Source of the DNA: Botryllus schlosseri
Taxonomy: Eukaryota
NCBI GenBank assembly: GCA_051294905.1
Contig: CM119372.1
Location: 29,948,001 to 30,012,000, forward strand
DNA length: 64,000 bases
Direction of reading: 5' to 3'
Shown: piece after piece, positions 5,177-31,360 of the stretch
Layout: every line of letters begins with the position of its first letter
Numbering within the stretch: the first letter of the stretch is position 1
Notes under the pieces: model-generated
Told to the model about the DNA's origin: nothing
Databases searched by the model: none
What the model saw: the letters and a program-made list of their open reading frames with translations, nothing else
Program-made: the position numbers and the translations under genes

Positions 5177-5189
5177 ACTTCTGACACCA
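5177..5189 (-). promoter_or_regulatory. Primer-binding site TGGTGTCAGAAGT (tRNA-Leu type)
   Basis: Starts 2 nt inside the 5' LTR and begins with TGG. The tRNA assignment is from recall of this common PBS. Confidence 0.8.
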
Positions 5190-5191
5190 AT

Positions 5192-5446
5192 TGTTATGTT
5201 CTTGATCTTGTTTGAACAATAACTCAATGCGACGAGGTTGCAATACAGAATCAGTATATTATCAACAGAATAACTTTAAGGCAGCGACACGATCCAGAGT
5301 GCAGTTAAATGAAAAGACGTAGAGAACAGAACACAAAGGGTATAAATACAAGCACGACACACGAGGAAATAATGATTGGAGGTAATTACTAGTCCTATAG
5401 AAATTAGGAGTGAAACAACACTGAACGTAAATGCACGAACATAACA
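5192..5446 (-). repeat. 5' LTR of the Gypsy element
   Basis: Direct repeat of 603..857. Confidence 0.97.
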
Positions 5447-9473: not shown

Positions 9474-10337
9474 TCAGCTCATATTAACACCCGAAACAGC
9501 ATGGGTTCCATCAACACTGGGTTTTCGTAAAGCTATCATTCGGGTTGGAGCCTCTAGTCTCTTCGGAAGCCTACTATCTCGACTGGTTGAAGGCTCAATA
9601 TCGAACACCAATGTAGTTTCAAGATTGGTATTTTTGACTATTTGTTCGTTCCCCCCCTTATTTTTCAAGGAATTTTCAAGAGCTGATTCCGACAATTGGT
9701 CAATCGGTAGAATAAAAACGCCCCCCACATAACCAAACGTGCTTGTGGACCCGTATGTAAACCTCCATTGTTCGGGATTTCCTCCAAATAGGAACTCAAA
9801 TTCTGCGTCCATCCGACATCTCGTAAAACAAAATGTTTGCATGTTTTTTGCCCCCCGATATTGTTGCAACAGGAGAGCTATGGCGGTTATTATCGCTTCT
9901 GGATATAACACATAAAGTACTATATGTCCTTTATCTTTTTCGGTGTTTTTATCTAGTCCTTTGTGCATACTACAAGCTTCTAATAAATAGGTATGGCATA
10001 CTTTCATAACTTCCAAAACCTGCCAGGTGTTCTTGAAATATGGTTTTACGTGCCTCATAAGGTAACATTGTTTGCATTCCATGTTCCCAACCGGGTGAAA
10101 AGGCTTTCCTAATTTTGTCCAGTCCTCTTTGGTGTACATAGATTGTTGCCAATACTGCACCCTCGGATTGTCCTTTTCACAAGTGCCAAACAAAAGGCTC
10201 ATCAATCGGTCCCGAACCGGCGCAGTTTTAATGGTTTCCATTACCAACTGCTGCCTATGCGTCAGAGTGAACTGCATTGCCCACTCGTGGACAAACTTGT
10301 GATCCGTATTAGGATTGCACAATAGCCCGTAACACAT
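9474..10337 (-). CDS. Intronless 287-aa protein resembling the PWWP3A/MUM1 C-terminal domain
   Basis: Motif VKPYFKNTWQVLEVMK...DKGHIVLYVLYPEAIITAIA...AEFEFLFG recalls PWWP3A VETYLEDEGQLDLVVK...DRIRFILDVLLPEAIICAIS...AEEKYIKG (from memory, not searched). No PWWP domain. Confidence 0.6.
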   Translation of the reverse strand: MCYGLLCNPNTDHKFVHEWAMQFTLTHRQQLVMETIKTAPVRDRLMSLLFGTCEKDNPRVQYWQQSMYTKEDWTKLGKPFHPVGNMECKQCYLMRHVKPYFKNTWQVLEVMKVCHTYLLEACSMHKGLDKNTEKDKGHIVLYVLYPEAIITAIALLLQQYRGAKNMQTFCFTRCRMDAEFEFLFGGNPEQWRFTYGSTSTFGYVGGVFILPIDQLSESALENSLKNKGGNEQIVKNTNLETTLVFDIEPSTSRDSRLPKRLEAPTRMIALRKPSVDGTHAVSGVNMS

Positions 10338-10519
10338 TTCTTTCTTTAATTAGTTCAATATTTATAATTCTTAAATACAAAATGTTTCTTCTTTATTCAA
10401 ACAACACTTAGGATATTGGTTCATGTTGTACATTAATACGAAACGGATAAAATCTATTGGCTCAACTATATTCACATATTTTCGCTGAATATCTTAGTTG
10501 AACAATGTGCGAGAATTCA

Positions 10520-11038
10520 TTAATCATCAGAATGATGTGATGTTGTAGGTCTAAGTGGAGCGATAGGTGGTTGCTGACGAAACATGATACTGCCAAAAGA
10601 CGCATACGTCCCGTCTGACGTAACATTGCTATTATGCGGCAAGTTGCGGCTTGTTGAAGATGGCGTCAGTAAGGACGTCACAAGAGGACTACTTGTCGAT
10701 GTTGAGGAGCCAGCTTCTATTTCTTCACTTCTATTCTGTTCGTTTGAGGCAGATTTTCTTAGCAAATATGGTTTTACTTTTGCTAACTTTAGATTTTTTA
10801 ATTGTTTTCTACGATAGTCATTTCGCCATGGCCATTCTTTGACCTTTTCATTACTTGCTCCCATTCCTTCGAAGAAGGCTTCTGCATAATGTCTAGTTCC
10901 ATTCTTAATGTCATCGAAAAAATCATTCCATCGTTGTAATCTCTCTGTCTTTTCCACCCCTCGAAGTACTTCATACCATAGTTCGATATTTTCAATAGAT
11001 AACTCCCATAATTGTTCTTTAGTTATTGATGCAGACAT
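10520..11038 (-). CDS. Orphan 172-aa protein with a Ser/Thr-rich tail; possible diverged paralog of 9474..10337
   Basis: ATG-started ORF in the co-oriented array; EVLRGVEKTERLQRW and VKPYL echo LLFGTCEKDNPRVQYW and VKPYF. Confidence 0.55.
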   Translation of the reverse strand: MSASITKEQLWELSIENIELWYEVLRGVEKTERLQRWNDFFDDIKNGTRHYAEAFFEGMGASNEKVKEWPWRNDYRRKQLKNLKLAKVKPYLLRKSASNEQNRSEEIEAGSSTSTSSPLVTSLLTPSSTSRNLPHNSNVTSDGTYASFGSIMFRQQPPIAPLRPTTSHHSDD

Positions 11039-11496
11039 TCTTTCATTTATGACACCTTGTTATTTTTACACCTTAAAATAATAGTGTTTCTTTCAGCCGA
11101 GATTATTGAAAGATATCGTTAATAATATTCCTTTTTCGGTAAAGTTGATTTGGTTTCAAACTTTGAATTTTGCTAATTGTTTATTAAGCCTGTTTGGAGT
11201 TAATTATTCTTTGACCAAGTAGAGAAAGTGTCATTTCTGGTTTTATCAATCCCAACAGTTCTTAATTGCCATAACTAATCTTCTCTTTTATATCACATAC
11301 CAGACTAATTGTTCTCTCTCTCCTAAAATCCACTGAATAACCTATCATTATTCCATGGGTATACAAATCTTTTTCAAACGAAAACCCAGTCGTCCACAAT
11401 ATGCAATTATTTCATTATCAGTCACAGAAAATATAACATATCTGGTAACAGTTGCAACGTTGTTAATGTACAATTATATCGCAAAGCTTTCAAATA

Positions 11497-12000
11497 CTAT
11501 TCGTCCTCCCAGGGACGCCAAAATTTTTCGTAGCGCATGAGTGTTTCCTCGTCTAGAGGTCTTAACAGTTCATGATCCGAGGATAGATCAGATTCACTAC
11601 TATTAATTCCAGAATCAGTATCTGATAGGGTATTCAGACTTTCATCCGAGTCTGTTAAATCACCGGACTCGGAATCCAGATAAGGTCTTAACAATTCATG
11701 ATCTGAGTAAAGATAGGATTCTATACAATCATTTCCAGAGTCGGTATCTGATAAGATACTCAAACTTTCATCCGAGTCTGTCAGATCTGATTCCGAATCT
11801 GTACTGTCTCCCCAAATCGAAGGGTTCCTTTCAAAATAGCTTTTCAAGGTGGTTTCGTCAATTTCTTGTTCGCTTTCTTCACTTTCATCATTCTCACTAT
11901 CGGATGGTGCTTGACACGATTCGAGAATTGCATCTATATTTTTAAGAACCACAACCCAATTTCCGGACCATATCTGCTTATCGAGAATAGAGGGTTCCAT
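11497..12000 (-). CDS. Acidic Asp/Ser-rich 167-aa orphan protein with a 42-aa internal duplication
   Basis: ATG-started ORF; DLTDSDESL..LSDTDSG...SDHELLRP occurs twice (126-nt period, frame preserved); TATATA ~65 nt upstream. Confidence 0.6.
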   Translation of the reverse strand: MEPSILDKQIWSGNWVVVLKNIDAILESCQAPSDSENDESEESEQEIDETTLKSYFERNPSIWGDSTDSESDLTDSDESLSILSDTDSGNDCIESYLYSDHELLRPYLDSESGDLTDSDESLNTLSDTDSGINSSESDLSSDHELLRPLDEETLMRYEKFWRPWEDE

Positions 12001-13859
12001 TGCTTCAGCACTTGTTATGCCTACAGTTATACCAGCAAAGAGATGTATTGTGGTTTCTTTGCCCTATATATACCAGGCCTGTGGAAATGCATGAAGCCTA
12101 TGTGTCATTAATTTTCCAAGTAACCAACAGGAAGCTCCTGTCTCTTTGGGCGAGTTCGCAAAACAGTACGTGGCAATTTTGTTATTGGCCTTATACTACG
12201 TATGTACTCTATCTACAACAACTTCACCTCTCAGCGTAGGAGTTGTTATTTACACGCCTCATTGCGCAAATCAAGTCGTTAAATTTTATTGCACCACAAT
12301 TTGATCGGGAATTTGTTATGCCTCAATCAACTTTGTGCCTGGACATTTCTTATTGAACGAAACTCCACTGCGGGTCAAATATTAAACCATAGTGCTTCGT
12401 ATGTCAAATGATCAGATTTTAGCACATTCTTAGTACCGTCATTGCTATATAAATACTGTATCATTGAAGTCGTAATGTCTTACTACAGAATCTGCCCAGC
12501 CGACCCGGACTTGTGTGAATCATTGGCCGGATGTTATCTAGTGCATGATTTGTAGTAAAGCTCTAGTGCATACTAAAGACCCGTTTCCTTTACCGTCTCC
12601 TTCACCGTCCCCTCAAAACATCGAGTCACCAATTTTTACTGTAGATAAGTCCTCATATCAAATGAGCGAGGACTGCCAAAATACGAGATAGAACCTCAGT
12701 TTATGACGCGCGTCGCCATTTTGTAAGGCTAACGATGGAAAATTCGACAACTCTGAATCCGCGCAATGAACCGCGAATAGACTCGGATGGGCTTATTTGT
12801 TCAGTTGTTCACGTTAAAAATCAAAGGATCAGGCCGAATTTTTTAGACTCATAACCTCTTTGTGCTGCACACAAGTTGTGGAAGTAATGATTAGATGCGC
12901 ACTTTCGCGTTTGTTACAATAATTAAGCTAACAAATACTGTCCGCTGAACACCGCCATATACCTTCGGTAGTTTCGTGGATAATTGAAAGCACCTCAAGT
13001 TACTATCAAATTCGACTTGCTGATCAGGGCATACATGGACCAGGGACAGACATTAACCAGCACGTTTGTCTCCCATTTGTACTCGTAATGCTGCCTACTA
13101 CAAATTGTCGATGACCCATTTCGTATACAAATGATTTGCGCTACATTATGCGTATTATACGCATGTGGGTCGGTTACCGTCCATATAGAAAATTTTCGAA
13201 ATAGTTACACTCTCTGAGTGTACTTATTGTTGATGTTCATATATCTATTTCACTGTAACTCTAGCCCTAGTTCGACAACTTGTGCCCGTCGCCACCGCCA
13301 AATACGGGCAATCAGGTATGACCAGAGCACCCCGTAATTGTGACTACTGTATATTTGCGTTCTGCTCGTGATTCCGTTATCAGTCAAACCTTGCCAGCCG
13401 ATTGAACAGTCGTTACTATGTATTGTACACAACGTATTTGGTAGATTTTAGCAAATAAACAATCGCTATTGGATTTACCGATTCAATCTCGTCGTTAAAA
13501 CGTAATTAATAATGTGCATACCGAATAACACCATCTTCTATCATGACTTTATGATCAAATATAAGTTGAGTTTTTTACCTTCTATAAATTTTGGTGCACA
13601 TTATATAACGATGAGATCCGTCAGTCATGTTTGAAATACTACTCAATCATGTTTGTGATAACCATCCCAGCGCCAAGCTAACCAGCCAAAATAGACATTT
13701 TCAGCTATTAATCATCACAACATAAGCTACCCAATAATGGAAGCCCACTGTGTTGGCGGTATGATCATTTATCGACAAACCATGTTCATTCATTTATGCA
13801 CACCAATTTGTTCATACCAATAAACCGCGTCAATACACATAGAACTCATTGTACTTCTG

Positions 13860-15110: not shown

Positions 15111-16899
15111 TCGGAGCAGCCAACAATTCAGTTCAAGTTTTGTAGTATGCCAAATCCACTTATGTTTGCTGATAGAAAATTTGCGAATAGGGGTTCGAAA
15201 AGGATACACAATAAATCCTAATATTAACACGTCCTATGTGCAGTATTTGTTAGTTAACAGCGTAACTTTACTGCGTTTATAAAATTACCACACTCGAGAA
15301 TACAGTAAAATTGCCCATCCCCGATGTAGATGTTACTTATTCAAGAAAATGCAGACTATGGCGCAAAAAGTTCAACAGCTAAACTCTTAGTATTATGTCC
15401 TTTCTTTTAGATAAAACTTCAAAATGATCCAATGTTAGTGGGGCAATATTTAGCCTACTAAAACATATATGACTCATGTGATTCAAATTATTTCCAACGA
15501 CGTAATTTCTGCGCAACGTAGTTGTTTTACTATGTAGTAAAATTGCAATTGACATAGCTATTCTGCAATTCTTTGAAAAATACTATCTATCTAAACTGTC
15601 ACGAAGTGATTAATAAATTAACAGATATCCTCTTTGGGCAGTCGTCTAATCGCCAACTACTCCTCGCCTAACAGAATACTTCGAATCTCAATTCATGACC
15701 TACCATCCCCCAAAACACTTAAGTGTATTTAAATTTGTACTCAGGTTCCTAATCATAAATTGAAGATGGTTGCTCATGTTTGGTGAAGTAATTTGTCAAA
15801 CATTGTTATATCTAGGCATTGCAACTAGCTATAATATACTCGATTTTTTAGACCATACAACCTAATTTAAATAAATTATAATTTTTTAAAACGTGATGTG
15901 ATAGAATAACACCCACGTACTATCAACTCAGTGCCCATTTATTATTTATAAATAAACCCAACGATTTCTAGCGTAACAATAATGTGGGTCTTTATTTTTT
16001 ATATCAATGAATCCGCATAACTAGATTCACCCCAAGTATTGTTCCATCATGTCGGACATTCTAGAAGGACCAATTAATTGGGGCGGCTCCTGTCACACAG
16101 ATTTAGGTACCATGCCCATATTTTCTTTAAAATTAGCAATGCTTTACCTGAGGGAGCTTTGAGAACGGTACATATTTTACAGTCGAGAGTCATAGTAGCT
16201 TAAAAACATTGAAGCGGATCAATCACTCTGCGTCTTGAGCAGAATTGTTATTATTTAACTATTATCCGGTTCGCAGCGTAATATGAGTTTGACAGTACAG
16301 GAAACTATCTGTGCTACTCGTCCTCGTTGTGGCAAACGCTTGTTGTTGAATTACTTTGCCACAATGTTTAAGTTTGGACCGACGAGGCGAGTTGTGTGTA
16401 TGAGCATAGCTAATTTTTGGAACTTATAAGTTAGTGTTTCTCAACCGGAATAAACGTAATTCTTGGGATATACCAGAATTTGCAAAGAGTGTACCTTTCC
16501 AATGGGATATATATGGATGTACCAGACCCGGATTACCCTGAGCCTACGGTCAGCTATCACCAAGGTAGGTATATGTACAATGTTGTCTCAAATGTAATAC
16601 TGTATTCCGCTTAGTCGCAATATCACAAGTTATTTATTTTAGTCGTAAACCTAACTCAATGGTCTAGTTAGATGTTATAAAGTACCTACAGTTGGAAGAC
16701 ATGTTTTTAGCTAGTCATTTATGCTATAGGTCAGATTTCCTGAAGCGGTATTCCCTGCTTGACGTAAATAAATGCCATAATGTAGTGAATGCAGCAATTG
16801 AAGTGACGTAGCCAGTCAGGGTCGAAACACCTTCCATATTTGAAATTAAAAAACCCTTTTGATTTAAAATACCGATTGGTTGTGTCTTGATCCCAATAC

Positions 16900-17545
16900 T
16901 GTAACATTCGAGTCATAAGTCATTTCGAGTCACTGCACCTTTTGATCGAGTCAAGTCAAGTCAACTGTTTACTGAAGGTGACTCGAGTCAAGCTAAGGTT
17001 CAAATCGAATTGCCTTTATCAGTCATAAGACGTAATTACGTCATTGTGCTTTACTAGCTTTCTGCAATACATATCGAGTGGTCATTGGTATTTAACCGAT
17101 GAAGATATATTGAGTTAAATAAGCACACAAATAATGCGCTGTATTGTTCACATATAAGTAACTTAATAAACCACTTAAGTAAACGCACCGTTCTCAGTTT
17201 ATTATACTAGCCCAAAATAGGGAATTGAATAAAACACTATAGTTATGATAGCGTTGGCTGCAAGCTTCGACTTCTTAACCCGCGATCAATATGTTCGTGA
17301 CACTATGTCAGATGGATGCCCAATAAAACGCACTATCATTGAATGATTGGTCGCTCTTATGGATCACATAAATGTCGCATGAACAATCCGAACATATGCT
17401 AGATACAGCGATCTTTATCTACATTGATTTTTGATGACTTGAAATTGGCTCACTAATTTTGCTCCGAGTTAAAAATCAATTCGTATTTCTGATATACCGA
17501 GTCAAATCAGGTCAAATCAAGTCGCCTGAGACCAGTGACTCGAGA
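16900..17545. repeat. Degenerate element with CTCGAGTC/AAGTC subterminal repeats
   Basis: Clusters of cgagtcaagtc at both ends, similar to the element at 38442..38997. Confidence 0.4.
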
Positions 17546-20500
17546 GATCATGGACCTATGTATAGCGGCATACGATTTGAGATTATTGGCATTCTCTTGT
17601 AGCCTAGTTGCTATTGTCTACTTTGTGCAGTGTGCAGTACGCAATGTGAGGTAGCCCTGATACGCAATAGGTTGATGCTCATGCTATCGCCGATTGAAAT
17701 TCCCACTTTTGCCGCAGTTATTTATACTACCCAATACTGTTATTTTTAGGTTAGATTATCGTTTGTAATGTCATGCTGTTTTTGGGGCTGCCACAAAATA
17801 GACGCCGATTTTTATTGATGGCGTCTTATTCGGCCGCGAATAGACTTTGCGATCAAATTTTAGTTATTTTAAATTCAATTTTTTGGACATGGAACCTGTC
17901 CCATAGATTTATGAGACCAGTTTGTCAATTCAGTAATTCGCCATTAACTAACTCGAATCCCCCAATATGGCTATTTCAATCAATACGTTGAAATGCGTCA
18001 TATTATGCCATTGCAAGCAATGCCCAAGGGATATTGGAATCCGATGCCCAAATCATACGGCGAGGATACCATTTTTAGTTTATATGTAAGTAACAGCTTT
18101 AGTAGCAAAACGCGTCGACAGCAGACTGATACTATAAACCATAAAATTCCAGACCTACTGTCATTATGTGCAGCAAATGATTGTATTTACAAACGTCTTT
18201 AGCAGGGATCAGCAGTACCTTTTTTAGCACAGGCAAAATTATGAGTGAGCGAGTGTTTGGCGGGCCGTGATTTTATTTCGTGGTATATTTTTCGCTTATA
18301 TCAGTATATTATACTATCTGATGCAATATCAATCATTCTAACCGTAAAACACAAGCATTTATACTTCAGCAGCGCAGAATGAATGCAACAATTGATGCAG
18401 CTTGCTTTACGAAAAATCGTCAACTTCTGACAATAAGTCAGGTGAAGCAAGAGCCAGACCATATTCCATATAGGCTTCCAAACTTCGTGATATTAGCTTG
18501 TTCTTCTAGAATTTTATTGTTCAAAACTATTGCTCACATGCGTATACACACTACTAAAAATCAATGTAATGTCTTTTGCATTGTTGGTCACGTGATAAGG
18601 ATAGGTTTCAAGGACGTACTCTCTATAGTGATATGCTCCTTGTGTTATATTTGTCATTAAATTCTACTGCATCGCATTTCCGAAGGCTCATTTTAATTTT
18701 ACGGACCAGTTATTAGCGTCCATATTGAATTAGTACTGAGTATTTAGAATTTATTTTTGTATAGAAGAGGTGTCAGTGAAGCGGGTGAATATTCCATCAT
18801 TAAATTTCATGTTATAGTTATAAGTACATCGTTGATTTTCTCTCTCCCCTTCAGATGAAAATGAGCATCAGTTTCTTTGTACTGACGAAATTTTCCTAGA
18901 CGCCGATTTGATTAGAATGTGTCCCTATATCTCATATATCCAGTTGTTTTACCTTAAGTATTAAATTCTATTTGTTCCGATGTGATATTAAATGTATCAG
19001 GAGAGCAAGTTTATATACCAATTTAAAAAAAATAAGATTATGAGTTAGCGATATTTATAATTCAAGAAAAGTTGCCGTTTTATTTCACAGTTCATTGCCT
19101 CATGCAAGCATGGCTACTTTATTTAATACGCGAACGGGAAAGATACTCCTCTCTTTGTTCTATTGATTCAATGCTTCTGGTAATTTTAGCGTAACAACGC
19201 TGGCGATTCAGTTAGTGAGACAGGATGGTATTAACCTTTATCATCATCTCACTCGATTGGTTAGCAACAATATGTTATATTCTGCCCAGATAATCTTCAT
19301 CACCTATTTCAACCCCTTTTTGTTCTATGACGTCACATTAGAACGATACGATGTAGAGAACTTATATCATAGCAGTTCCGCATTCTTTCCAAACAGTCCG
19401 GCACTGAAAAGGGAAAAGTATTTTAAAATGGTGGTCAAAATCTTGTGACATCTAAATTATTGGACCGGGCGATTTCGCTTAGCGAGTCGGATCCAGCCCC
19501 TAGTCTATAGCTATGTTGCGTGGGATTATATAACTGATAACATCACGTATTAACAAGGGTTTCAATTACCAAGCTGACAATTAATTACTATAGTTGTTGT
19601 CCTAGCCTATTTACTTCCAATCCACTACTAGTTTTCATATGTTAAATTTTAAGTCAAACGACCATCATTATTGTCCACATTGTAAATTTTACTCAAAGTA
19701 ATTTAATTCATAGGCTCTTTGTGATCTTCTAATGTAGTTTCATCGATTTCTTCTATTCAACTGTGTTTTGATGTTATATAATCATAACTTCTTTCATTAT
19801 ATTTAATCGTATAAAGACAATTTTCTTTAACGTTCACATAATATTAAATGTCCTAATGCTATTGTTTATAGGATTTGACTAACTTGTCATCAATCTTAGT
19901 CAACTTCTTTTCAACCCTTGCTAACTTTCTAGACTCTTCATGCCTTTCAGCTCTGTGTAGAGTGAACTGAATTTTCTGTTCTTGCGCTTCGAGTTATATT
20001 CAGTTGTGAGCGGAAGATCGTTAACATGTATGCATCCACCCCTGTCACCACGAGCAATTTATTACTTTCTTAAAGTAGGGACTGACGCACATCCGAACAT
20101 TCATCAAGCAAATTTTTGTCGCTATCCTTCGTACTATAGCGTGATTAAACCACCAATTGCAGTCAAATTTCACCATTTTGCTGCAGTTAATTATTTCCTA
20201 TGAGTCAATCTACCACTGCAACGTTTCCTTTCCCACCGCCTTTTTATGGCCTTATTGCGCAAATGTTCCACAGTGGCGTGATCAAACCACCAATTGAGGT
20301 CAGATTTCGCCATTCTGCTAAAGTTAATATTTTCCTGTGCGTCAATATGCCATTGCAACATTTACATTCCCACAGTCATTTACGGTTGTATTCTGCAAAA
20401 ACAACGCAATTTGCTCTCAAACTTTGCAAACTGATGTATTACTCAATCCTAATTTGGTTTCTTAACACAATCCGACAATTTCGCAATTATATATTTCGCA

Positions 20501-21806
20501 ATGATGTTCGTTGCATAAGCAACAGTAATACCGTGAATTTGCCGCGTACAATATTCAATAATTAACATAACAACATAACACATAACAACCCTCATTTCTA
20601 CTTTACAATAATTCGGCATTTATTTTACAATATTTATCTTAGTTTGTCATGCAATGTCACTGCAGTAATATACGTCTTTCGGTTATTCCGCCGAATAACC
20701 TCCCTAAGATAATTTTTTGAAGTGACTCTCCGGCATTTCGCATAACCTAAATACATACATCCTACCATTGCCGTTACGCTAACCGCAAAAATCAAGGCAT
20801 AATTGTTAGTTGATTCTTCTAAACCCTTCTTATTATTAATATCAATAATAGTTCTTCCTACTGTATAAGCTTGTTCCATTTCCAGCAGTTTGTGTAATTC
20901 TCCGTAGAAATCAAATGTAATTCGGTCCGGTCTGTCATCTTTGGTAGTAGATAAGGTAAGCGGTATATCGAGTGTAGTTATTCCTTCTTCGACTGCGGGC
21001 GTAATTGATGAACGTGCACTATTGGAAGTCCTCTTCCAACTTTTGATCACATCATTTTTACTTACTGATGTTGGTTCGTTCTGGCCGTACCTTGATGAAA
21101 GCAATGATGTTGATTTAGTTCTTACCTTTAGGTCTTGTTCCCGAGTTTGGTCATATGCTTTGGTGGTAGAGTGAGCCTTGTTGGTGACGAAATTTCGGTG
21201 CATTCCAACTATCGTTGCTATTCGTGTTGTATCAAATAACATGTTGAGGTACGGTGTCGTCTCCACGAATTCCTTAGCGTAACGATTTGATTGCATTGAG
21301 GACTCAGATGTCCGCATAATCTGCGACGTTTCTATAGGCATTGAAATAGAGTTTGACATTTCACCGCTTTTTGTGGGTATTTGATAAGTCGTGGTATCCC
21401 ATTGTAACGGTGTATTTGCAGTTTTCTCTATGGGTGTAGGTATTGTTAACTCATTTTCAGAAAAGGTGGTTCCTGTCGTTGTGACACCAATACTTTTCTG
21501 AGCGTCCATCTCTGTTAATACAGCCAAATCTTCCGTCGTCGGATCCCCAGTCGTAAAAAACTCTGTGGAACTCACTCTGCGTCTTTCTCGTACACTCGCA
21601 GTTTTCACTGTAGTTAAGAATGTAGTTATAGATACAGTCGGTCTTGAGCTAGCGTTATCCTCGCGTGAGGAATGCGTTGTCGTCGATATGGCAGGAAGTG
21701 GTGTCGATGAAGCCGTTCCGGAAGTAATAATAGCCGATGTCAACCTTCTGGTGTATGGCGTGATTCCAGTAGTTGTTAATTAAATAGTATATTCATATTG
21801 AAATGA

Positions 21807-21840
21807 ACCCGAATATTTTCGGCTGACACTCGTCAGGGGT
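21807..21840 (-). ncRNA. Minimal hammerhead ribozyme (mirror copy)
   Basis: Exact reverse complement of 23582..23615. Confidence 0.78.
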
Positions 21841-21941
21841 AATCGTCAGCAACTAGTAGAGAATTGGAAAGAACATTGTATATCAACAATCGTATCACAA
21901 AATATGACGTCACCAGCATGAAATTTCGAATGAGAGAGCGT

Positions 21942-22677
21942 TCAATGTACTATTTTTAGGTGATACACGAACTCCTTTTGTTGACAGAGTTTTGGTTGGT
22001 GTATTTTGATAAAAGTTGATTCCAAGGCACACAAATGGAATTGTGAACGGCCTCGACCTACGATTCGAAATCGGTCGTCTCGATAATTATTCGCACAAAT
22101 CGGATTATCCAACAAATGTTTGCCGATGGCAGAATTAATTGCCTTTGATCGATCAGCATCAATCTTAAGTGGATGAGTTAAGGGTGAGCTTTTCACATCG
22201 CGTGACGCACGTGTTCTGATAAATCTGGGGACATGTTGGTTTATGCGGTCCTGCAGACGTCTTGACGTTCTTCCCACGTAGCCACAATCACAGTGGCACC
22301 TATATTCGTACACTACATTACTTTGTTGAAGTGCAGGAAGCACGTCTTTGCGTGTTGAAGGGAGCAGTTGTGTTGTTGTAAAAATCACATTGGTTTTGAC
22401 TGTATCGTAACATTTACCGACAGCAGAAATCAATTGTTTTTCAAAGCGGGTGGAAATGGGGCCAATCCAAGGTAGATGGATATAAACATCTTTTATTGTT
22501 CGTGCGGTGGGCTCTGTTCGTTTTTCTGCGTTGAATTGCGTTAATTTCCTCTCCATGCCGCGGCTGATGACGTGTTCAGGGTAACCATTATCAAGTAAGA
22601 TTTTTCGGATGTAGTCAAGTTCTAAACTCAGTTTGTTACCCGAACATATCATCAACGCTCTATGCACGAGTGTGCCT
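21942..22677 (-). pseudogene. Penelope ORF 3' fragment (RT thumb/linker and GIY-YIG), inverted copy
   Basis: NVVYEYRCHCDCGYVGRTSRRLQDRINQH motif; translation identical to the plus-strand copy. Confidence 0.9.
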
Positions 22678-22699
22678 GGAAGGCCGGAAGGCCTGGATT

Positions 22700-23480
22700 C
22701 CGCTGGAATTCATTTAGTCCTCGGCGCAGAAAAATTAACCTCATAGGCACACTCGTGCATAGAGCGTTGATGATATGTTCGGGTAACAAACTGAGTTTAG
22801 AACTTGACTACATCCGAAAAATCTTACTTGATAATGGTTACCCTGAACACGTCATCAGCCGCGGCATGGAGAGGAAATTAACGCAATTCAACGCAGAAAA
22901 ACGAACAGAGCCCACCGCACGAACAATAAAAGATGTTTATATCCATCTACCTTGGATTGGCCCCATTTCCACCCGCTTTGAAAAACAATTGATTTCTGCT
23001 GTCGGTAAATGTTACGATACAGTCAAAACCAATGTGATTTTTACAACAACACAACTGCTCCCTTCAACACGCAAAGACGTGCTTCCTGCACTTCAACAAA
23101 GTAATGTAGTGTACGAATATAGGTGCCACTGTGATTGTGGCTACGTGGGAAGAACGTCAAGACGTCTGCAGGACCGCATAAACCAACATGTCCCCAGATT
23201 TATCAGAACACGTGCGTCACGCGATGTGAAAAGCTCACCCTTAACTCATCCACTTAAGATTGATGCTGATCGATCAAAGGCAATTAATTCTGCCATCGGC
23301 AAACATTTGTTGGATAATCCGATTTGTGCGAATAATTATCGAGACGACCGATTTCGAATCGTAGGTCGAGGCCGTTCACAATTCCATTTGTGTGCCTTGG
23401 AATCAACTTTTATCAAAATACACCAACCAAAACTCTGTCAACAAAAGGAGTTCGTGTATCACCTAAAAATAGTACATTGA
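22700..23480 (+). pseudogene. Penelope ORF 3' fragment (RT thumb/linker and GIY-YIG)
   Basis: VVY...YVG GIY-YIG motif with Cys insert, SAIGKHL, ALESTFI; the RT core is missing (5'-truncated). Confidence 0.9.
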
Positions 23481-23581
23481 ACGCTCTCTCATTCGAAATT
23501 TCATGCTGGTGACGTCATATTTTGTGATACGATTGTTGATATACAATGTTCTTTCCAATTCTCTACTAGTTGCTGACGATT

Positions 23582-23615
23582 ACCCCTGACGAGTGTCAGC
23601 CGAAAATATTCGGGT
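23582..23615 (+). ncRNA. Minimal type I hammerhead ribozyme in the Penelope pLTR
   Basis: ACCC-CTGACGA-GTGTCAGCC-GAAA-ATAT-TC-GGGT: conserved CUGANGA and GAAA cores, UH site (C23611), stem I ACCC/GGGT, palindromic ATAT in place of stem III. Confidence 0.8.
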
Positions 23616-23776
23616 TCATTTCAATATGAATATACTATTTAATTGTATATTGAAGTTCTGTACCTCCAAGAAGCTCTTCAAGTAGTTGTTAATGTAGACG
23701 CAATACTCTCCGATGTATATGCAGACGTTCGTGGCGTAGGAGTTGTTGTATCAGTTGTTAACTTGATTGTGTATCG

Positions 23777-25271
23777 CAGCGGTTCTCAACCGGGGGTCCG
23801 CGGACCCCTAGGGGTCCGCGAAGCAATTTCAGGGGGTCCGCGAGACCTCTAAATTTTTAAAATGGCTGATCACGCATAATCTTCGTTTTATTTTTTAATT
23901 TGAGAAAGCAGTAGGCAGTTTCGCACCACAACTGCTAAAACCTCATGACTCATATCATCATCATAATCGTCTGACATGAACTATCGTAGTGCGGAAATTC
24001 ATTTTTATTGCCAATTTTCCAATAACCTGCTGATACATACGTATTGCTGTTTAGAGACGTTCTGTTGGGGTTTGTGAAAAAAAATAAAAATATGGAGATA
24101 GTAACGTCCATCAGGGTGACTTCTTAGTGTCTGCGAAACCTTCTCGATTTGAAGTTGTCAGTCTCATCAAATTAGTGAACAGTGGTTTGAAATAAAAATT
24201 TCCGAAGTATTTCCCTAATTGGTCCCAATGTAGGGATTGAAACCTCGCCACGAAATCCATTTTATCCTGTGATATACCTAACCACTATTTGAACAGCTTC
24301 TTGGAGGTACAGGACTTCAATATAGAATTGTATAGTATAGTCATATTGAAATGAATCCGATTATTTTCAGCTGACACTCGTCATTAATCGGACAATGATA
24401 TACTTGTTCTTAAAGCTCGGCTATCAGATTTGGCGCATTCTTCTTGCGGATGCCCTATCTTCAAGGCAAATTTTTCGATGCGCAAGGAGTGTTTCGTTGC
24501 TATCAAAGCATTACGCCCCAACCCTGAAATTCATATCACCAGTTATATTGGTACGCAGCCTTGTCTTGTTAATGTTCAATTGTTCATGGTCGAAAATGTT
24601 TGCTCGTAAATATATAAGTAAACCCGAACAGAACAAGTCGTTTCATGACAGTCCTTCTCAGGTTGGAAAACTTGGATCCATTCTTTGGCGCATAAAATTT
24701 GTAGATTAGATTAGATTAGGATTTCACTTTGACGGTAGAAACTCTCTGCAAATCGATCAAAATGCCATCGCGGACCGAATCCGGCCTGTGGTCCGAATGT
24801 TGCCCGTCCCTGCGCTAGATGCTGGACGTGATATGTTCATAAAATATATGTTTCTTCATTTTGTTGCCATAAATGTTGCGATCCCACCAAAAGTATCGTC
24901 GGAAGCGTCATGCGTTAATATTGCATTAGCCTCCATCTACCTTTGCGGAAATGGTTTTTGGCACTCCTCGTTTCATATCAAAACAAAGACGCGGATTTTC
25001 AAGACACGACCACGTACTTCAAGAAACACAGCAGCAAAATTAGATTTGAAATAATAAAAGTCTACCAATTTCTACATAAATAGTATGATGTTATTTTCAA
25101 GAAAAATCAATATTTTGCTGTTTATCACAAGCCTATAAAGTTCATAATTGCACAAAACAAATGAAGGTCGCACCATAATAGAGCTAAAATTGAACTAAAT
25201 CTTGAGGGGGTCCGCGAGGGTCCGTGACGGTCAAAAGGGGTCCGCGAAGCCAAAAAGGTTGAGAACCACTG
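23777..25271. mobile_element. Non-autonomous hAT-type element (TIR CAGYGGTTCTCAACC)
   Basis: TIRs, GGGGTCCGCG subterminal repeats, perfect 8-bp TSD GTGTATCG (23769..23776, 25272..25279); related copy at 43264..45434. Confidence 0.92.
24290..24383 (-). repeat. Diverged solo Penelope pLTR/tail fragment nested in the MITE
   Basis: Reverse-complement match to 23587..23680 with several mismatches; absent from the related MITE at 43264. Confidence 0.75.
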
Positions 25272-27532
25272 GTGTATCGACTCCCTGTAGTCAAGGTTGG
25301 AGTTTCAGTCGTTGATAACGCAATTGTAGTTCCAATAATATTTGTGGAAGTCGTAGTATCAGCAACGGGTACAGGCTTTCTTCTTAGAGAACTGTCATAC
25401 TCGCCGTCTGCGTCATAATAGTCATAGTAGTAATTTCCAGGTTCTCGATAATTAGTATAGTTGTCATATCCATCATAGCTAAATCCCTCGTAATCTTCAA
25501 TACTATCATAATTATAACGTTTAACATCGTATTGATCCGTCCTTCTTACACCTCCCTCAGTGTTTGTGATGGTTTCCACCGTTCTCATTGTTGGTTCTTG
25601 ACTCATTCCGATAGGAGTGAAATTATACAATGTACCAGACTCGCTATTGGGAGCCGCCCTTCGAGTGGTCCCTTCATGACTGACGGGCCTTGTTGTTATT
25701 ACTTTTGCAGTACTTAATGGCCTTGCGGAGTTTGTTTTTATTTTGGTATTTTCCTTATAGGCATAAGGTGTATATAGCAATATTCCCGCACATATTATAG
25801 CTTTGTAGGCAACACTAGGTCGGAATAGCCGTATATCACGAAGCTGTGCCCCTCTCAATTTGCGCGTTGACATGTAGCTCAATAACCCATTATTTATCCT
25901 ACTCAGTTTCCGTTGCGTCAATGCTGACCCCAGTTCCTGACTTAAAGATTCCATTTCAGCGATTGTTGTAGATCTTTCCAGTCTCTCTAGATTTTTTCGC
26001 TTTTTATATATGGGAAGAGACAACTGGCGTAAACGCCTTTTCGTTACTTCTACATAAAACATTCCTAGGCGGGCTAGATAATATTCAATATTTCTTGTGT
26101 TTTGTCCATTGTTTTCAAATGATGCAGTCAGAACGAAGTTGCCTAATCTCCCGGGTTGTTTACAATAGGGTAGATTCTTGGGCCATGCTTTAAGCGAAGA
26201 TTCTTGACCTGAAGGTCTCGGGGATGCAATTTGTAATCGACCATTGTTATGATCTGCATACACGGGTTGATTTGTGTATGGATCATATAACACGTCCTTG
26301 AAGACCAAGGCCGTTTTCAGATTTCCTATTGTATTTCGACAGACTTTTCTATTCTTTTTGCGTTCACATTCCAGGCTACCTTGTAACAATGTCGGAAAAT
26401 TATTCGTCCCCATTATCCGTAGAGTTTCGTTATTTAGATGTTCACGAAGGGCATAAACCCTTAACCTGAACCATGTGTGACCGTCAAAGTTCGCTGGTCT
26501 TTCTCTGGGGCCTGTCTCATTGCGAGCTTTCAGCCATACTATATCGTGTTGTAGCCTGGGTAACTTGACTCCCGCTGGCCATTGGCTGTAAGAATAGGTA
26601 TCTTGCATTCTTGTCCCAAGTCCTCTTATGCTATTATCTATCTCCCTGATTACAAAGTCTCTGGACAGTGTATTTACTGTAAGATTGTCTGCATAAAATA
26701 CGCATCCTGAACATTGCATTCGGCCAGTTTCTTCGTGAACACATACACTAAATTCGCCTTTGTTGATTTTCCACCCCACGATTCCTTCCGAACGCTGTTG
26801 ACACTTCGCTGTCACTGTTGCATATTGTGACAATAGATTCATTACTGATAACTTGTAAACTGTCAACAGCTGGTGTATAGTAACTTGTGGGGTCGTATTA
26901 GGAGAGATTATCCTATGAATAGCTCTCGGCACGGCCATAGGAACACGTGCTTCTCGTCCTACAACATACTTCCATGTATGTATTGATCCAAAGTCACTTT
27001 TCCGACGATATGTTGTGGTTCTGGTCAGGGCTAATAACGTAATATCGGGAGATATTCGTGATAGTTTCCGATTGCATCCACATTCTCTTTCGTATTGCCT
27101 AACATTGCTCCAAAACCGCCTCTCAGACCCTGAGGGTGCAAATAACTTATACAATTGACCATGACCCGCTCGTGTTGGACCGAATTCGGGCGTTTCTTCA
27201 TATATTGATAAATTATTTTCCGTTTCACCTATTGGCCAACTCTCATTTAATCTAAATAGTCGATTAAGGCGGATATATTTGAGACCTTGATATCGGAACG
27301 TTGTCCATCCTGTGAGGTTAAATTTGATCCTGGGCACCGCACTCATAGCGGATAGGGGCAATAATTCGCCATGAGCTTGCAGATATCTTCGGTGCAGTAT
27401 TAAGGCCACTGCCAGCACACTCCATACTTTCAGGTAACAGTTCATAGTATTATAATTAGTTAGTATATCTGTAGACTATATGATACAGTTAGATTTTATA
27501 AAAGCAAATGTTTTTGAGTACATATGTATGCA

Positions 27533-29979
27533 CTACATCCTTGTCGATTTGGCTGTTTTCAAGTAGGTAGGAGTCGATGATATGTACATTGTCAATTGGG
27601 AGTTAGTGTTCCGCCTTTGTACCTTAGATTTTAACTTGGGACAGCAGAGACTGCTATAACGAAAGCAGCAAAACAAGATGATCCCAGCCCCCAATATCAA
27701 AATCAATGGAATTAACACGGACCCCAGGCCGGAGAAAATACCACTCAATCCTTTACTGAATATTCCACCGGCCGCGCCAAGTCCATCTTGTAGTAAATCA
27801 CCCGCGCTATTTCTACCGATTTTATCAAACTGCCGGCACCGTGCGTCATTTCTTCTATAGTTTGGCCCAAGTTCTTCATAAATTCTTCACCTCCAACAAA
27901 TTCGAAGGGCTTCACTGTAATGTTCTCATATCGCCAGTGAGAAATATTCATGTACACACTCTTATTCAGATCTTCTCTCCAAACTTGTAATCCCAGATCC
28001 ACCCTCTGTTGGGCTTGATCTAGACTGATACGATTTGCACGTAGCTCCAAACCAATGTCATTCGTCTCATTGATAAAAGCGTCTCTATAGGCTGTTAATC
28101 GCTGAGCATGTTCTTTTATCCGCAATGTCCCTCGCCGAATTTTCGTGAGATATATCTTGCTGGAATCAAATATTAGTTTGCCAGTTAAGTTTGCCAATTC
28201 GTCTAAAACCAACCGATCGATGGCCAGTTCAGCTTCATTCAGTTCCTTATAGTTTTGAAAAGAGGTCAGAGAGGCTGTGGCTTGTCTTACTATCATCTGT
28301 CGGTTTCTCTCTATATACTTTTCCATTAGTACAAGACGTTTATTTACTAATGATGCCCTTACCTCCAAGGTGGCGACCGTCTGATCCAGTTTCTGTTGTT
28401 GAGCCCTTTGTAGTCGAGAAAGTTCGTTAATCTTTCTCCCTAGTGCAGTGGACCTCTGCGTGGCTTGTATCATTCTGTCATTAATCTGTCTGCTAAGATC
28501 CACTGTCTCTTCATGTAACTGGGATGAAACTGTCGCCACGACGGCTATTGCAGACACCAAGCCAAATACAAGGCATAGTAGTCCAGACAGGAACCTTTTA
28601 CGCCTTTGACGCGTGCCCCGATTGGCAATATCTCTCGATACCATGTCACCTTTAATTTCTATTGGGCCCCCTGGGAAACGTAGTCGGTTTCGTTCCGGAT
28701 CAAAGTGAATATGGTCCCAAAATGCTGCCTTCAATTCGGGTCCGCCTACCGGGTCACGGCACACCTCCTGGTTTCTTGAAATTCTATTTTTACATGCCAT
28801 GTTCGACTCAGTAAGAGAGGGAAATTTTAACCATATAGGCATGGTATCGGACTTTGATGGTACACCATCATAATGATTATCCCACCGTCCGAATCGTTCA
28901 AGTCTACGATACGAACCCCCCAAGTTCGGAAAAGACGGAAATATCCATTTAACTCTGTGAGGGAAATTTGTCATTGGTAGATCACCCCATAAAGTGACAT
29001 TTGTTCCTGGCCAGAAGTTACACGAGTGGGCTATTCTGGCATATTCATGCCACCAAGGGTCCTGGGGCCATCGGTTCTCGTAATACTCTTGGTTGACCCA
29101 TCCTCCGTGGACCCTGCATGGTATCAACGGCCGAACCTGTGACTCCCAGTCACTTACTTTAGTCATTACTACTTCTCGGATGATTATATCTGCCTTATTT
29201 GGTTCAAGGGCCGAGATTACTCCCTTAATGTCGCATCTCGTACAGATTCCTATCCTGACCCCCTTCTTTACTAGATGCCAGCATTGTGTAAAACTATTGC
29301 TACTGGCATTGTACTTGTTCAATTCTCCCATTTTTTCCATATCCCGATCTCTCATTCGCTCTTGGCGGCACAAGGCTTCAACAGCTGAATACCTTTCGAA
29401 GACTCGAAGCTTAATTAATTTAAATTTAGTCATGGCAAACATGGAGTAATTCCTTCCAAGTTCCTTGAACAAGTAAGTGTTTCCAGACCAAAACCAGCGG
29501 ATCCTATAAGGTCCTATCGGACGAATGAACGTATTTGTTTGATTAAGGACATCATAGGAAATATTAGGCGAAATTTGGCCCAGGCGCCGCTGACAGAGGC
29601 AGGTGCGTTCAAATTCTTGTACGCTTGTCCAATACCGCCCATGTGGGAACGCCATTTGTTGTAATGAAAATCGCTCAGCCACTACGTAACCAAATGACTT
29701 GCTATAAAACAACTCCGGTCGTCTATATACATGTCGCTCAGCCGTCTTATTGAAGATGCTCATCACGTGATAGTCCTCCCACTGTGTCTCATTCAAAGTC
29801 ACCCATTCCTCGGGTAGGGGTCCTCGTAGTTCACCTAGCGTCCCCTGAGTGAAAGACCGTGCTCTACTTGTTACAGAATCTGTGAGTCCGTGCATGCCTT
29901 TCGCCTCCGTATGCTGCAAGCAATCAAATGTACTATTGATACCAAAAGAGACAAGAATAAGATAAACGAAGCAGTCCAT
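27533..29979 (-). CDS. Class I viral fusion-protein-like envelope glycoprotein (~815 aa if a single 1-nt frameshift is corrected)
   Basis: Signal peptide MDCFVYLILVSFG, many N-x-S/T sites, RQRRKR furin site followed by hydrophobic FLSGLLCLVFGLVSAIAVVATV (from 28593), long heptad-like helix. The -1 frame carries DGLGAAGGIFSKGLSGIFSGLG, TM VLIPLILILGAGIILF and CC-containing tail (27533..27748). Confidence 0.85.
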
Positions 29980-30112
29980 TCTTGTGGAATTATTGGTTGT
30001 GGCCACCTCATAAGTTGGATATAATAGCGCACTAATCCTAGACTACCGTCTGTAAAAACACATGAAAAATATTTTGTCATATCCGGCCTATAACCTATAG
30101 CGGAGTTCACAG

Positions 30113-31181
30113 TTATAAACCTACAGGAGACCCGTCAAATTTGTCAAAATTATACTGTGGGTCATTGTGTATGGTGCGCAGGAGTGCCAGAAATCGGTCA
30201 ATTTTCTGATGTTGACGTTTCCACAAAAACTCCCCCACGTAATCGGCCAAAAGATGACGTGCTAAACCACGAGACCTATGTAAATGATACTTGAGCTGGC
30301 TCCAGCAACATTCCACGTCATTGGTATGGCGAGATGTCCGAGGGTCTTTAAACCAAGAAGAATGATCCACTACACCGTGTATATAACCCTTCCCCCAGCT
30401 CTCTATGCCCTTATAGGAAGGGTAGGCATCGGTCAAAATCGTGGACCCCTCTGCTACATTCTCTACTATGAGTTTTCGAAATACTTCAGCAGTCCTGTCG
30501 GCAGTTATCTCAATGAACATTTCTCCGGTAGCTTTATCTATGCCCCCGAACCCCCAAATGGCTTTAACAGCTGGTCCTTTACCCGAGGCAGCCCGGCGCT
30601 TAGCTAAGTGCGTCTCATCAATGATAACACAGCCTTCTTTACCTCCCAAACGTCGTTTATTCCTGCGAAATTCGGCAGTACAAATTTTTCGCAGTCGTCC
30701 ACACCAAGCGACAACTGAACGCTGGCTAATCTCGGCTTCATGTGCAATTTGGGTTTGCAACGCGTCATGGGCCCAAAAGTAGAATAGTATTAGCAATTTG
30801 GGAAGTTCTACCTTGCTTCTTGCGAATAGCGAGTATTTCCGTATAGTCGCCGTAGTATCGCACGGGTTGCATCGCCACCTAAATCCATCGTCACACGTCG
30901 ACGTACTCTCTTCCTTCATTATTTTTTTACATCGTTGGCATTTCATCCTTCGCACCAGCAGCCCGTGATCTCTCAGAAATAGCACACAATCTCGTGTGTT
31001 GAGTAGCGCACCCGATTCGATCAAACTCAACACATTGTATGTTCTTCCCCGCGTATCTGCGCAAGTAAGCAATACAGTATGTGTCGTCCATCAACTCTCT
31101 ACCGTCCTTTGCGGATCGGACCCCTTTTTCTCGACCTATTATATATCCTATTTCTCTCTTAGTTAGTCCCGTATTAATCAT
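30113..31181 (-). CDS. Merlin / IS1595 (ISXO2-like) DDE transposase, probably with a short 5' intron
   Basis: Zn ribbon CQRC...WRCNPC, HTH region, IIDET, WGFGGID, ILTDAYPSY, VDHS..F.DP...HTNDVECCW motifs. The long ORF lacks an ATG; ATG 31181 joins it in frame via GT (31135 or 31102) ... AG (31057). Confidence 0.9.
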
Positions 31182-31296
31182 ATGGCAGGGTTATTTTTTC
31201 ACTTGTTCCTTATAACATCTAGTGATTATTTTACCCTTATTTCAATGTACATGGACAACACTTACAATCCTACCACACACCCACTTTATGATGCAA

Positions 31297-31310
31297 CAAC
31301 TATTGCCGCC
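31297..31310 (-). other. Candidate terminus (TIR) of the Merlin-type element: GGCGGCAATAGTTG
   Basis: GG-starting motif ~130 nt upstream of the transposase ATG, at the switch from the ORF array to host-like DNA. No partner TIR found in the window. Confidence 0.4.
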
Positions 31311-31360
31311 TAGACCTCCGGGTACTTATTTCACTAGTACCAAGATTTTGAATCCAGGAT

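Follow-up and report, generated by a model that had tools for sequence, protein, structure and literature searches.

A family of giant Merlin-type elements in Botryllus schlosseri that carries gag, reverse transcriptase and envelope-like genes between transposon ends

Mobile elements are divided into those copied through RNA and those moved as DNA, and retrovirus-like elements are defined by an integrase that acts on the ends of long terminal repeats (LTRs). In the sections of PMC8101967 available to us, Merlin transposons are described as a transposase gene flanked by terminal inverted repeats (TIRs), and they are defined by 5'-GG at the terminus, by TIRs of at least 24 bp and by target site duplications (TSDs) of 8-9 bp. 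The accessible parts of two further sources (PMC6431247, PMC10175614) present Teratorn of teleost fish as a piggyBac transposon fused with an alloherpesvirus, a giant, multi-copy element with envelope and host-derived genes; the second of these, a 2023 review, calls it the first case in which a cut-and-paste transposon and a DNA virus have fused. The same part of that review describes the giant retroelements Burro, Ogre and Terminons, 25-40 kb long and equipped with extra open reading frames (ORFs).

How does the locus described here compare? The window is a stretch of 64,000 nucleotides from Botryllus schlosseri (C2:29948001-30012000; C-numbers denote contigs of one assembly of 495.5 Mb in 219 contigs), in which an initial annotation had found a Merlin-type transposase linked to viral-type envelope genes. 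These genes are the 5' end of a decayed copy, about 81 kb long, of a multi-copy family of giant Merlin-type elements. In complete copies of about 40 kb, a full retrovirus-like gene set lies inside Merlin transposon ends. The element inserts as double-stranded DNA, and we infer in addition a phase of reverse transcription and particle formation. We regard it as moderately probable that the element is, or was until recently, a retrovirus-like agent in which a Merlin transposase and TIRs stand in place of the retroviral integrase and LTRs.

Termini, target sites and copies

Four copies were compared with each other and with the window; all share homology from about 260 bp upstream of the transposase over about 40 kb. 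The C5 copy (C5:27007773-27047912, 40,140 bp) begins with GGTACTTGTGAAATAAGTGCCCGG and ends with ...GCACTAGTTCC. The 5' member of the TIR pair reads GGTACTTGTG... and the 3' member ...CACTAGTTCC; anchored at the termini, the two are complementary at 17 of 23 positions. Perfect 8-bp TSDs flank all eight copies in which both ends were read, and all eight sequences differ:

C5 copy: ACGAATTT
C14 copy: GAAAAATT
Window copy: AAAATCTT
Short C4 copy: GAAAGTGA
C3 copy: CAATGTTT
C10 copy: CACACATG
Second C10 copy: AATTATAT
C2 copy: AATTTTTT

The element thus combines a DDE_Tnp_IS1595 transposase domain, a terminal 5'-GG, a TIR of about 24 bp and an 8-bp TSD, the features by which Merlin is recognized. 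From the 5'-GG TIRs and the 8-bp TSDs it follows that the element is inserted as double-stranded DNA by a Merlin/IS1595 DDE transposase acting on the TIRs; integration with a Merlin transposase had been supposed in the initial annotation. A genome scan for the 5' TIR pattern gave 49 hits and one for its reversed control gave 0, and the 3'-terminal 500 bp have 40 full-length matches at 83-100% identity; four matches are listed at 100%, the query's own copy among them. The flanks differ from copy to copy. Two copies of env2 on different chromosomes are 100% identical over 1165 codons, and such near-identical env2 genes and 3' ends point to recent movement. In all, the family covers well over a megabase of the genome.

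Copy sizes were obtained by pairing the coordinates of the 5' TIR with those of the 3'-end matches. The commonest size is 38-40 kb, with variants of about 8, 14.7, 22-23, 34-35, 47-52 and 81 kb; gene-bearing, TIR-bounded copies range from complete ones of about 40 kb down to 23, 14.7 and 8 kb. The 14.7-kb copy (C4:10611087-10625819), which has its own TSD, holds solely Tnp1, env1, env2, gag and pol. In the 8-kb unit, running from TIR to end at C16:623892-631928, 61 N-terminal codons of Tnp1 precede gag and pol, and most of the transposase and both env genes are missing. About 11 pairs of TIR and 3' end lie only 10-14 kb apart (for example C2:15288067-15301718, C3:3986215-3998339, C4:19306003-19318450 and C1:19042164-19054584); they have no scored Tnp1 or gag and retain a pol stub of 108 or 162 codons, and they are probably non-autonomous derivatives that multiplied after deletion.

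The window copy measures 81,409 bp and runs from window position 31341 leftwards past base 1 to C2:29897933 (window coordinate -50067). It has a 24-bp imperfect TIR starting with 5'-GG and a perfect 8-bp TSD, and the genes of its transposase-env unit all lie on the minus strand. Its features within and at the edge of the window are as follows.

31342..31349, unstranded: 8-bp TSD AAAATCTT on the 5' side; the same 8 bases stand beyond the 3' end at C2:29897933
31318..31341, minus: 5' TIR GGTACTAGTGAAATAAGTACCCGG, which holds the first base of the element
30113..31090, minus: Tnp1, Merlin/IS1595-type DDE transposase, an open frame of 325 codons with TGA in frame directly upstream
27745..29979, minus: main frame of env1, a class-I-like glycoprotein, frameshifted after about residue 731
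28594..28611, minus: furin-like RQRRKR of env1, followed by a hydrophobic, fusion-peptide-like stretch
27533..27886, minus: C-terminal part of env1 with the membrane anchor, in another frame
25184..27445, minus: N-terminal part of env2, a paralogue of the surface half of env1, without a furin-like site
about 21780..25295, unstranded: nested insertion of about 3.5 kb that splits env2, foreign to the element
20634..21779, minus: C-terminal part of env2, with a serine/threonine-rich, mucin-like region and a membrane anchor
15990..17710, minus: conserved non-coding block, about 81% identical to the C5 copy
11497..12063, minus: homologue of element ORF188, of no known family
10520..11059, minus: homologue of element ORF173, of no known family
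9474..10349, minus: ORF of the element, weakly similar to the C-terminal part of PWWP3A/B (E 3.2e-5, under the Pfam cut-off)
6447..6851, minus: homologue of element ORF194, interrupted in the window copy
5404..6387, minus: leucine-rich-repeat (LRR) cargo gene, its 3' end cut by a nested retrotransposon
615..5447, minus: nested Ty3/gypsy-type LTR retrotransposon, foreign to the element, with a gag-pol ORF including integrase at 891-5144
1..396, minus: homologue of element ORF197, running off the window; about 50 kb more of the element lie to the left

Much of what the initial annotation had read here holds good. The Merlin-type transposase is an open frame, the class I fusion-like glycoprotein seen about 130 nt downstream on the same strand begins 133 nt after it (ATG at 29979), and neither a TIR nor a TSD separates the two; the TIR (31318-31341) and the TSD (31342-31349) lie upstream of the transposase. 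The locus is indeed one end of a large element, whose second end at C2:29897933 has the same 8-bp TSD. The glycoprotein reported to follow 87 nt later is a true paralogue, but the distance is correct only when env1 is read through its frameshift into the frame at 27533-27886, env2 starting at 27445; and 20634-21779 and 25184-27445 are parts of one env2 split by the insertion of about 3.5 kb. The statement that no gag, reverse transcriptase (RT) or LTR is associated was accurate locally, and for LTRs throughout, but fails at the scale of the element, which in complete copies has gag and an RT-RNase H pol at its other end. The RT within the window, at 891-5144, does not belong to the element: it is that of the unrelated nested Ty3/gypsy-type insertion, and the end at which complete copies carry gag and pol lies, in this copy, to the left of base 1. 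To the frameshift in env1, the split env2 and this nested retrotransposon, the window copy adds the loss of Tnp2 and a stop codon in the E2 gene.

Both insertions deserve a brief description. The nested Ty3/gypsy-type element is compact, lies within the LRR gene and encodes a gag-pol of 1417 codons with RT, RNase H and integrase; its RT falls among ordinary gypsy pols in the RT tree, far from the RT of the element. The insertion in env2 holds near-identical inverted ORFs at 21942-22709 (minus) and 22626-23480 (plus), neither of which matches Pfam; a motif at their C-termini presumably recalls the GIY-YIG endonuclease of Penelope-like elements, as judged by eye. In four RNA-seq runs compared with window 20000-31500 (6-13% of each run, at least 80% likeness), depth is high over this insertion, the reads coming from a repeat family. 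In all four runs it reaches 200-1400 at 31136-31500, the flank by the 5' end, where loose read ends are poly-T (at 31363-31367) or adapter-like; this flanking signal is probably that of a short repeat, highly expressed or of low complexity.

Genes of the element

Comparison between copies picks out 21 conserved ORFs in the C5 copy, and a single strand carries them all. Their order is Tnp1, env1, env2, about 9 kb without a Pfam-matching ORF, four small ORFs (one of them weakly PWWP3-like), LRR, Tnp2, IAP (three BIR domains and a RING), an E2 ubiquitin-conjugating enzyme (UQ_con), further small ORFs, gag and pol; LRR, IAP and E2 count as genes of host-manipulation type. None of the 30 ORFs of at least 60 codons in the middle 9 kb matches Pfam. 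This region includes a block of 1.7 kb that is about 81% identical to the window copy and equally conserved in all three frames, and is therefore non-coding. Its sole tandem repeat, a 49-bp unit in 4.7 copies at 98% identity, lies just past env2 in the C5 copy (L012:5532-5763). Rfam gave 0 matches over 50 kb of a complete copy. The initial annotation had suggested that DNA polymerase, capsid, packaging ATPase or helicase genes be sought further left. The partner is not a DNA virus of that kind: 0 of 50 ORFs of a complete copy (20 long ones and the 30 of the middle region) match the Pfam families of these proteins or of primases, and the partner of the transposase is instead a retrovirus-like gag and protease (PR)-RT-RNase H without integrase or LTRs. 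As to the E2 gene, a large tandem cluster of continuous UQ_con-like E2 genes, 52-81% identical to that of the element, lies at C1:34.12-34.49 Mb, and two more dispersed sets of near-identical E2 sequences, at 56% and 55%, resemble genes carried by other repeat families. An argument from intronless cargo and intron-bearing host paralogues was dropped, because the closest genomic E2 paralogues are also continuous.

At the end opposite Tnp1 lie a gag-like gene of 954 codons and, in the C5 copy, a pol of 1160 codons. Pol reads PR-RT-RNase H-Tpt1 in one frame, with a Tpt1/KptA RNA 2'-phosphotransferase domain at its C-terminus; it contains the motifs DTGS (protease-like), YIDD (RT) and DAS, and matches Pfam RVT_1 (64.7 bits), RT_RNaseH_2 (69.9 bits) and PTS_2-RNA (Tpt1), its RNase H domains being of Ty3 type. 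In a complete copy, rve and Integrase_H2C2 match neither pol nor another ORF among the 50 scanned, whereas the nested gypsy element matches both. Pol stands in the -1 frame relative to gag, with an overlap of 66 nt. A slippery A_AAA_AAC occurs in the gag zero frame 15 nt ahead of the gag stop and is followed 4 nt later by a hairpin of -18.3 kcal/mol; site and hairpin are identical in the C5 and C14 copies. With these features in place, gag and pol are predicted to be coupled by a -1 frameshift at A_AAA_AAC. The neighbours of gag in a protein atlas are the zf-CCHC, Retrotrans_gag and PNMA clusters, which we take as a lead only. Some pol copies contain stop codons: 11 were flagged with one TGA and two with two TGA, against three with TAG (copies with TGA include C11:19534620, C3:29446590, C4:10622057, C2:32310577 and C1:24296827).

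The best matches of pol in the PDB are RTs, namely the pararetrovirus-type 'Enzymatic polyprotein' 8r0s (E 2.4e-18), foamy virus Pol and Ty3. An RT tree was built from 31 RT-RNase H rows after five short rows had been dropped; it is unrooted and without a retrovirus or BEL outgroup. In it the RT of the element groups with two public RT-RNase H-Tpt1 proteins (support 99/99), apart from the clade that unites Ty3/gypsy pols with plant caulimovirus-like polyproteins (95/86). A scan of viral contigs with pol found no relative. Strong Tpt1/KptA matches of up to 179.9 bits, many of them partial copies, cluster at C3:19.31-19.43 Mb, presumably as a host gene family; the Tpt1 domain of the element, at 45-50 bits, is far further from the Pfam model. 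A Palythoa preprint was rejected as a parallel, since the TPT1 meant there is TCTP, and other Tpt1 literature also concerns different matters.

Tnp1 matches Pfam DDE_Tnp_IS1595 with E 1.3e-9 and 38.7 bits (cut-off 27), and Tnp2, 38% identical to it, matches with E 9.9e-19; the candidate catalytic residues D158, D221 and E259 of Tnp1 are conserved in Tnp2. The genome holds 124 matches to Tnp1, of which 31 are 86-100% identical, 27 of these without an internal stop. The first in-frame ATG of the conserved N-terminal coding region does not come before codon 48. Directly upstream of Tnp1, 12 of 13 main-family copies have TGA in frame (the other has TGG), with an ATG three codons ahead of the TGA position in seven of the 13. 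A pyrimidine tract followed by CAG stands just upstream of the conserved region in all 13 main-family copies and in all six copies of the permuted subfamily described below. Other IS1595-type families, 30-34% identical to Tnp1 and present in several near-identical copies without an env1 match nearby (for example C7:23328002, C7:16494498, C3:37020953 and C6:711834), are presumably ordinary small Merlin elements.

The env1 frame has 744 codons in the window copy and forms a single open frame of 859 codons in other copies. It starts with a signal-like peptide, carries 14 N-glycosylation sequons and has RQRRKR followed by a hydrophobic stretch of 29 residues and then long helices. In sequence and model features this anatomy (signal peptide, basic cleavage site with hydrophobic peptide, long helices, C-terminal anchor) matches that of a class I fusogen. 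A search of 1.84 billion cluster representatives yielded just 38 relatives, each from the assembly of a sequencing run or a metagenome, and RxKR is the sole motif that stands out in the resulting alignment of 39 sequences. An AlphaFold2 model built on this alignment (pLDDT 68) has helices at 498-584 and 637-680 and a well-modelled N-terminal domain at about 60-290. The neighbours of env1 in a protein language model are the hemagglutinin, paramyxovirus F, coronavirus S2 and baculovirus F clusters (0.87-0.92), again as a lead only, and a complex prediction with three copies of residues 472-731 scored 0.17 (mark 0.32), which gives no verdict either for or against. By its anatomy env1 is thus class-I-like, and it is placed in no known family. 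The N-terminal half of env2 is 23% identical to env1 over 367 columns (E 8e-9). Elsewhere in the family a single gene of 1165 codons encodes env2, with a mucin-like region and one C-terminal anchor (type I); env2 lacks a basic cleavage site and looks like an attachment-type partner of env1.

Linkage, selection and gene order across subfamilies

All 51 Tnp1 copies of at least 56% identity, counted by hand, have env1 directly downstream on the same strand (31, 9, 7 and 4 copies by descending identity band). Since every related copy keeps env1 adjacent, the arrangement is far beyond chance. The initial annotation had asked for other copies with the same gene order and different flanks, and they exist in number; the small copies of the transposase without env against which it had set its reading amount to none among these 51. 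The association reaches further down, with env1 downstream at seven of nine Tnp1-type loci of about 40% identity; when C12:24397038 (38%) is added, eight loci at 38-43% Tnp1 identity have env1 downstream. Gag and pol follow Tnp1 at about 33-36 kb in the main family and at about 20-26 kb in a 77% subfamily. Of 15 diverged Tnp1 loci, 13 proved in a genome scan with the Tpt1 family model to have a long ORF with Tpt1 nearby on the strand of the transposase, 13-36 kb downstream at 12 of them and directly upstream at one, with none listed at the other two; env1 lies just downstream at 13 of the same 15 loci.

Pairwise ratios of nonsynonymous to synonymous substitution rates (dN/dS) between copies are given overall as 0.08-0.49 for the 21 ORFs; values for single genes are, for example, 0.09-0.12 for Tnp1, 0.22-0.58 for env1, 0.23-0.40 for env2, 0.14 for gag, 0.15-0.26 for IAP and 0.08-0.27 for E2. 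Such low values indicate that the lineages diverged while every gene was in use. Transposase, env and pol travel together, under purifying selection, in every subfamily examined.

One subfamily is permuted. At six loci (C1:24.30, C7:28.29, C12:25.77, C3:30.33, C3:0.62 and C16:20.60 Mb) the order is gag-pol-Tnp1-env1, with Tnp1 within about 100 nt of pol, and a Tnp2-like gene precedes gag by a few kb; a seventh pol-Tnp1 adjacency lies at C1:8.89 Mb. In four of the six copies pol and Tnp1 share one frame with a single TAG between them, and the remaining two differ by an additional stop and a shift of frame. No pair of ends was found within the pol-Tnp1 junction, and the TIR of this subfamily has no match to the main-family pattern. 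Judged by gene order, the transposase here occupies the position of a retroviral integrase, as if the gene circle had been cut elsewhere than in the main family.

Explanations weighed and known systems compared

How would a retrovirus-like agent with transposon ends propagate? In the reading that we favour, gag would package an RNA copy of the element, the RT would turn the packaged RNA into DNA, env1 and env2 would mediate exit and entry, so that the element may spread between cells by its envelope, and the transposase would insert the resulting DNA. More speculatively, and on the model of pararetroviruses, the RNA template might be transcribed from DNA that is circular or joined at its ends. 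The absence of terminal direct repeats and the permuted order gag-pol-Tnp1-env1 may hint at such a DNA form, which would solve the regeneration of the ends and would also explain the permuted subfamily.

Several observations weigh against an RNA phase or against the retrovirus-like identity of the genes. No direct terminal repeat is present, the first and last 300 bp aligning with a score of 15 (shuffle mean 14.8), and an abutted junction of 3' and 5' ends has 0 matches in the assembly; without terminal redundancy, no known scheme of reverse transcription would restore the ends once an integrated copy has been transcribed. The roughly 11 short end pairs without scored Tnp1 or gag make it seem that the ends alone are enough for amplification at the DNA level. 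Sense-strand AATAAA occurs 30 times where 42 are expected, so that internal poly(A) signals are only mildly depleted, and 40 kb is the upper limit for retroelements reported in the part of PMC10175614 available to us. Tnp1 protein may come about by splicing from an upstream exon or by stop-codon readthrough. The gag knuckle, C-X2-C-X4-H-X4-C, reaches 20.5 bits with Pfam zf-CCHC, just under the cut-off of 20.8, and the structure model of gag is unusable (pLDDT 35). As for env1, none of its 39 family sequences has a relevant Pfam match, its best PDB profile match is a non-significant one to influenza HA2 (E 0.058), Foldseek with its model found nothing at E 1e-3 or better in the PDB and BFVD, and VIA-align against 48,161 chains returned coiled coils only (Z at most 6). 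Finally, in the four RNA-seq runs, read against a window copy that the main family resembles at only about 82%, depth is 0-1.75 over env1 and env2 and rises to about 7 over Tnp1 in one run only, while the nested insertion and the flank are well covered in the same runs. This shows that expression of the element is low in four RNA-seq samples, and nothing beyond.

The most serious alternative takes many of these points at face value: a giant Merlin transposon made of DNA throughout and moved by cut and paste, in which gag-pol, env and the host-like genes are long-held cargo, which may serve some purpose other than copying the element or be relics of a retroelement taken in a single time, and no RNA stage exists. 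Merlin-type TIRs with 8-bp TSDs at eight of eight copies, the lack of LTRs or terminal redundancy, the multiplication of short two-ended derivatives without scored Tnp1 or gag, the near absence of RNA over env in four runs and the internal deletion variants of 8, 14.7 and 23 kb, which are usual in class II elements, all agree with it. Why, then, would cargo be kept so faithfully? Tnp1, env1 and the RT-Tpt1 pol stay linked down to 40% identity in Tnp1 and 30% in env1, 21 of 21 ORFs are under purifying selection between lineages, and all genes share one strand; such constant linkage, selection and strandedness are unlike cargo without a role in propagation. The frameshift site and its hairpin are kept as well, the smallest gene-bearing copy with transposase and env retains exactly Tnp1, env1, env2, gag and pol, and in one subfamily pol and Tnp1 are contiguous, in frame in four of six copies. 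We therefore judge a DNA-only element unlikely, though it deserves to be taken seriously.

Far less probable, and close to refuted, is the view that the element is a large endogenous virus with double-stranded DNA (herpes-, nudi- or Maverick-like) which owes its Merlin transposase to capture, in the manner of Teratorn. The size of 40 kb and the transposase at one end would suit such a virus, and large DNA viruses of invertebrates often carry IAP, E2 and envelope-type genes; yet no ORF of the 50 matches a DNA polymerase, major capsid protein, packaging ATPase, helicase or primase in Pfam, an RT is the sole polymerase, the genes all share a strand and the scan of viral contigs with pol was empty. 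A chance juxtaposition of a small Merlin with an endogenous retroviral env or a host glycoprotein locus, for which nothing speaks beyond the local view of a single copy, is refuted by the copy survey, in which the adjacency is kept in 51 of 51 copies at different chromosomal sites, TIR and TSD enclose the whole unit and no TIR lies between Tnp1 and env1.

Returning to the retrovirus-like agent, a bolder form of this explanation holds that the element is a new reverse-transcribing, enveloped, virus-like agent of animals, with a genome of up to about 40 kb that is copied via RNA from circular or end-joined DNA and includes anti-apoptosis and ubiquitin-pathway genes. We advance it tentatively, with slightly more doubt than belief; if true, the element would be a class I/class II hybrid and the largest genome known to be replicated by an RT. 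A reverse-transcription phase would in any case mean that the retroviral integration module can be replaced by an unrelated DDE transposase, that a second, independent transposon-virus fusion has arisen after Teratorn with another kind of virus, and that the size limit of reverse-transcribed genomes is directly testable.

In the full-text literature searched (subscription papers and preprint supplements lay outside the search), no element turned up in which a Merlin/IS1595 transposase is accompanied by RT, gag or env, in keeping with the view of the initial annotation that it knew of no description of such a combination. The element shares with the Merlin superfamily, eukaryotic relatives of IS1016/IS1595, the DDE_Tnp_IS1595 domain, the 5'-GG, the TIRs of about 24 bp and the 8-bp TSDs. 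It differs from it in a length of 15-40 kb, in a content of 5 to 21 genes that include RT, gag and env, and in having often two diverged transposases. Like Teratorn, in so far as the accessible text on that element goes, it is giant and multi-copy, has envelope-type and host-derived genes, and owes the chromosomal integration of a virus-like genome to a DDE cut-and-paste transposase and TIRs. Unlike Teratorn, it uses another transposase superfamily, its partner is an RT-based module rather than a DNA virus with polymerase, capsid and terminase, and its genes lie on one strand.

With errantiviruses, other env-carrying Ty3/gypsy elements and retroviruses, the element has in common a candidate zinc knuckle in gag, a predicted -1 frameshift into PR-RT-RNase H and an env with a furin-type site and a hydrophobic peptide, and the permuted subfamily shares with retroviruses the order gag-pol-(integration enzyme)-env. 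In contrast to Ty3/gypsy elements and retroviruses, it has no rve integrase and no LTRs, a TSD of 8 bp instead of 4-6 bp, a C-terminal Tpt1/KptA domain on pol, up to 25 kb of extra genes and an RT clade outside the sampled Ty3/gypsy. The words Merlin, transposase and Tpt1 are absent from the accessible text of PMC13524379, which served for the comparison with env-carrying Ty3/gypsy.

Like the pararetroviruses (Caulimoviridae, Hepadnaviridae), the element has an RT-RNase H without an integrase, and 8r0s is the best structure match of its pol; unlike them, its RT does not group with the plant caulimovirus-like sequences. Pararetrovirus genomes measure 3-8 kb and are not known to have a transposase, TIRs or regular TSDs. 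Burro, Ogre and Terminons keep the integration machinery of class I, be it LTRs with integrase or the Penelope type, and none has at its borders the TIRs and TSD that a DNA transposase leaves. Even on a cautious reading, the family described here is the first giant, cargo-carrying Merlin element.

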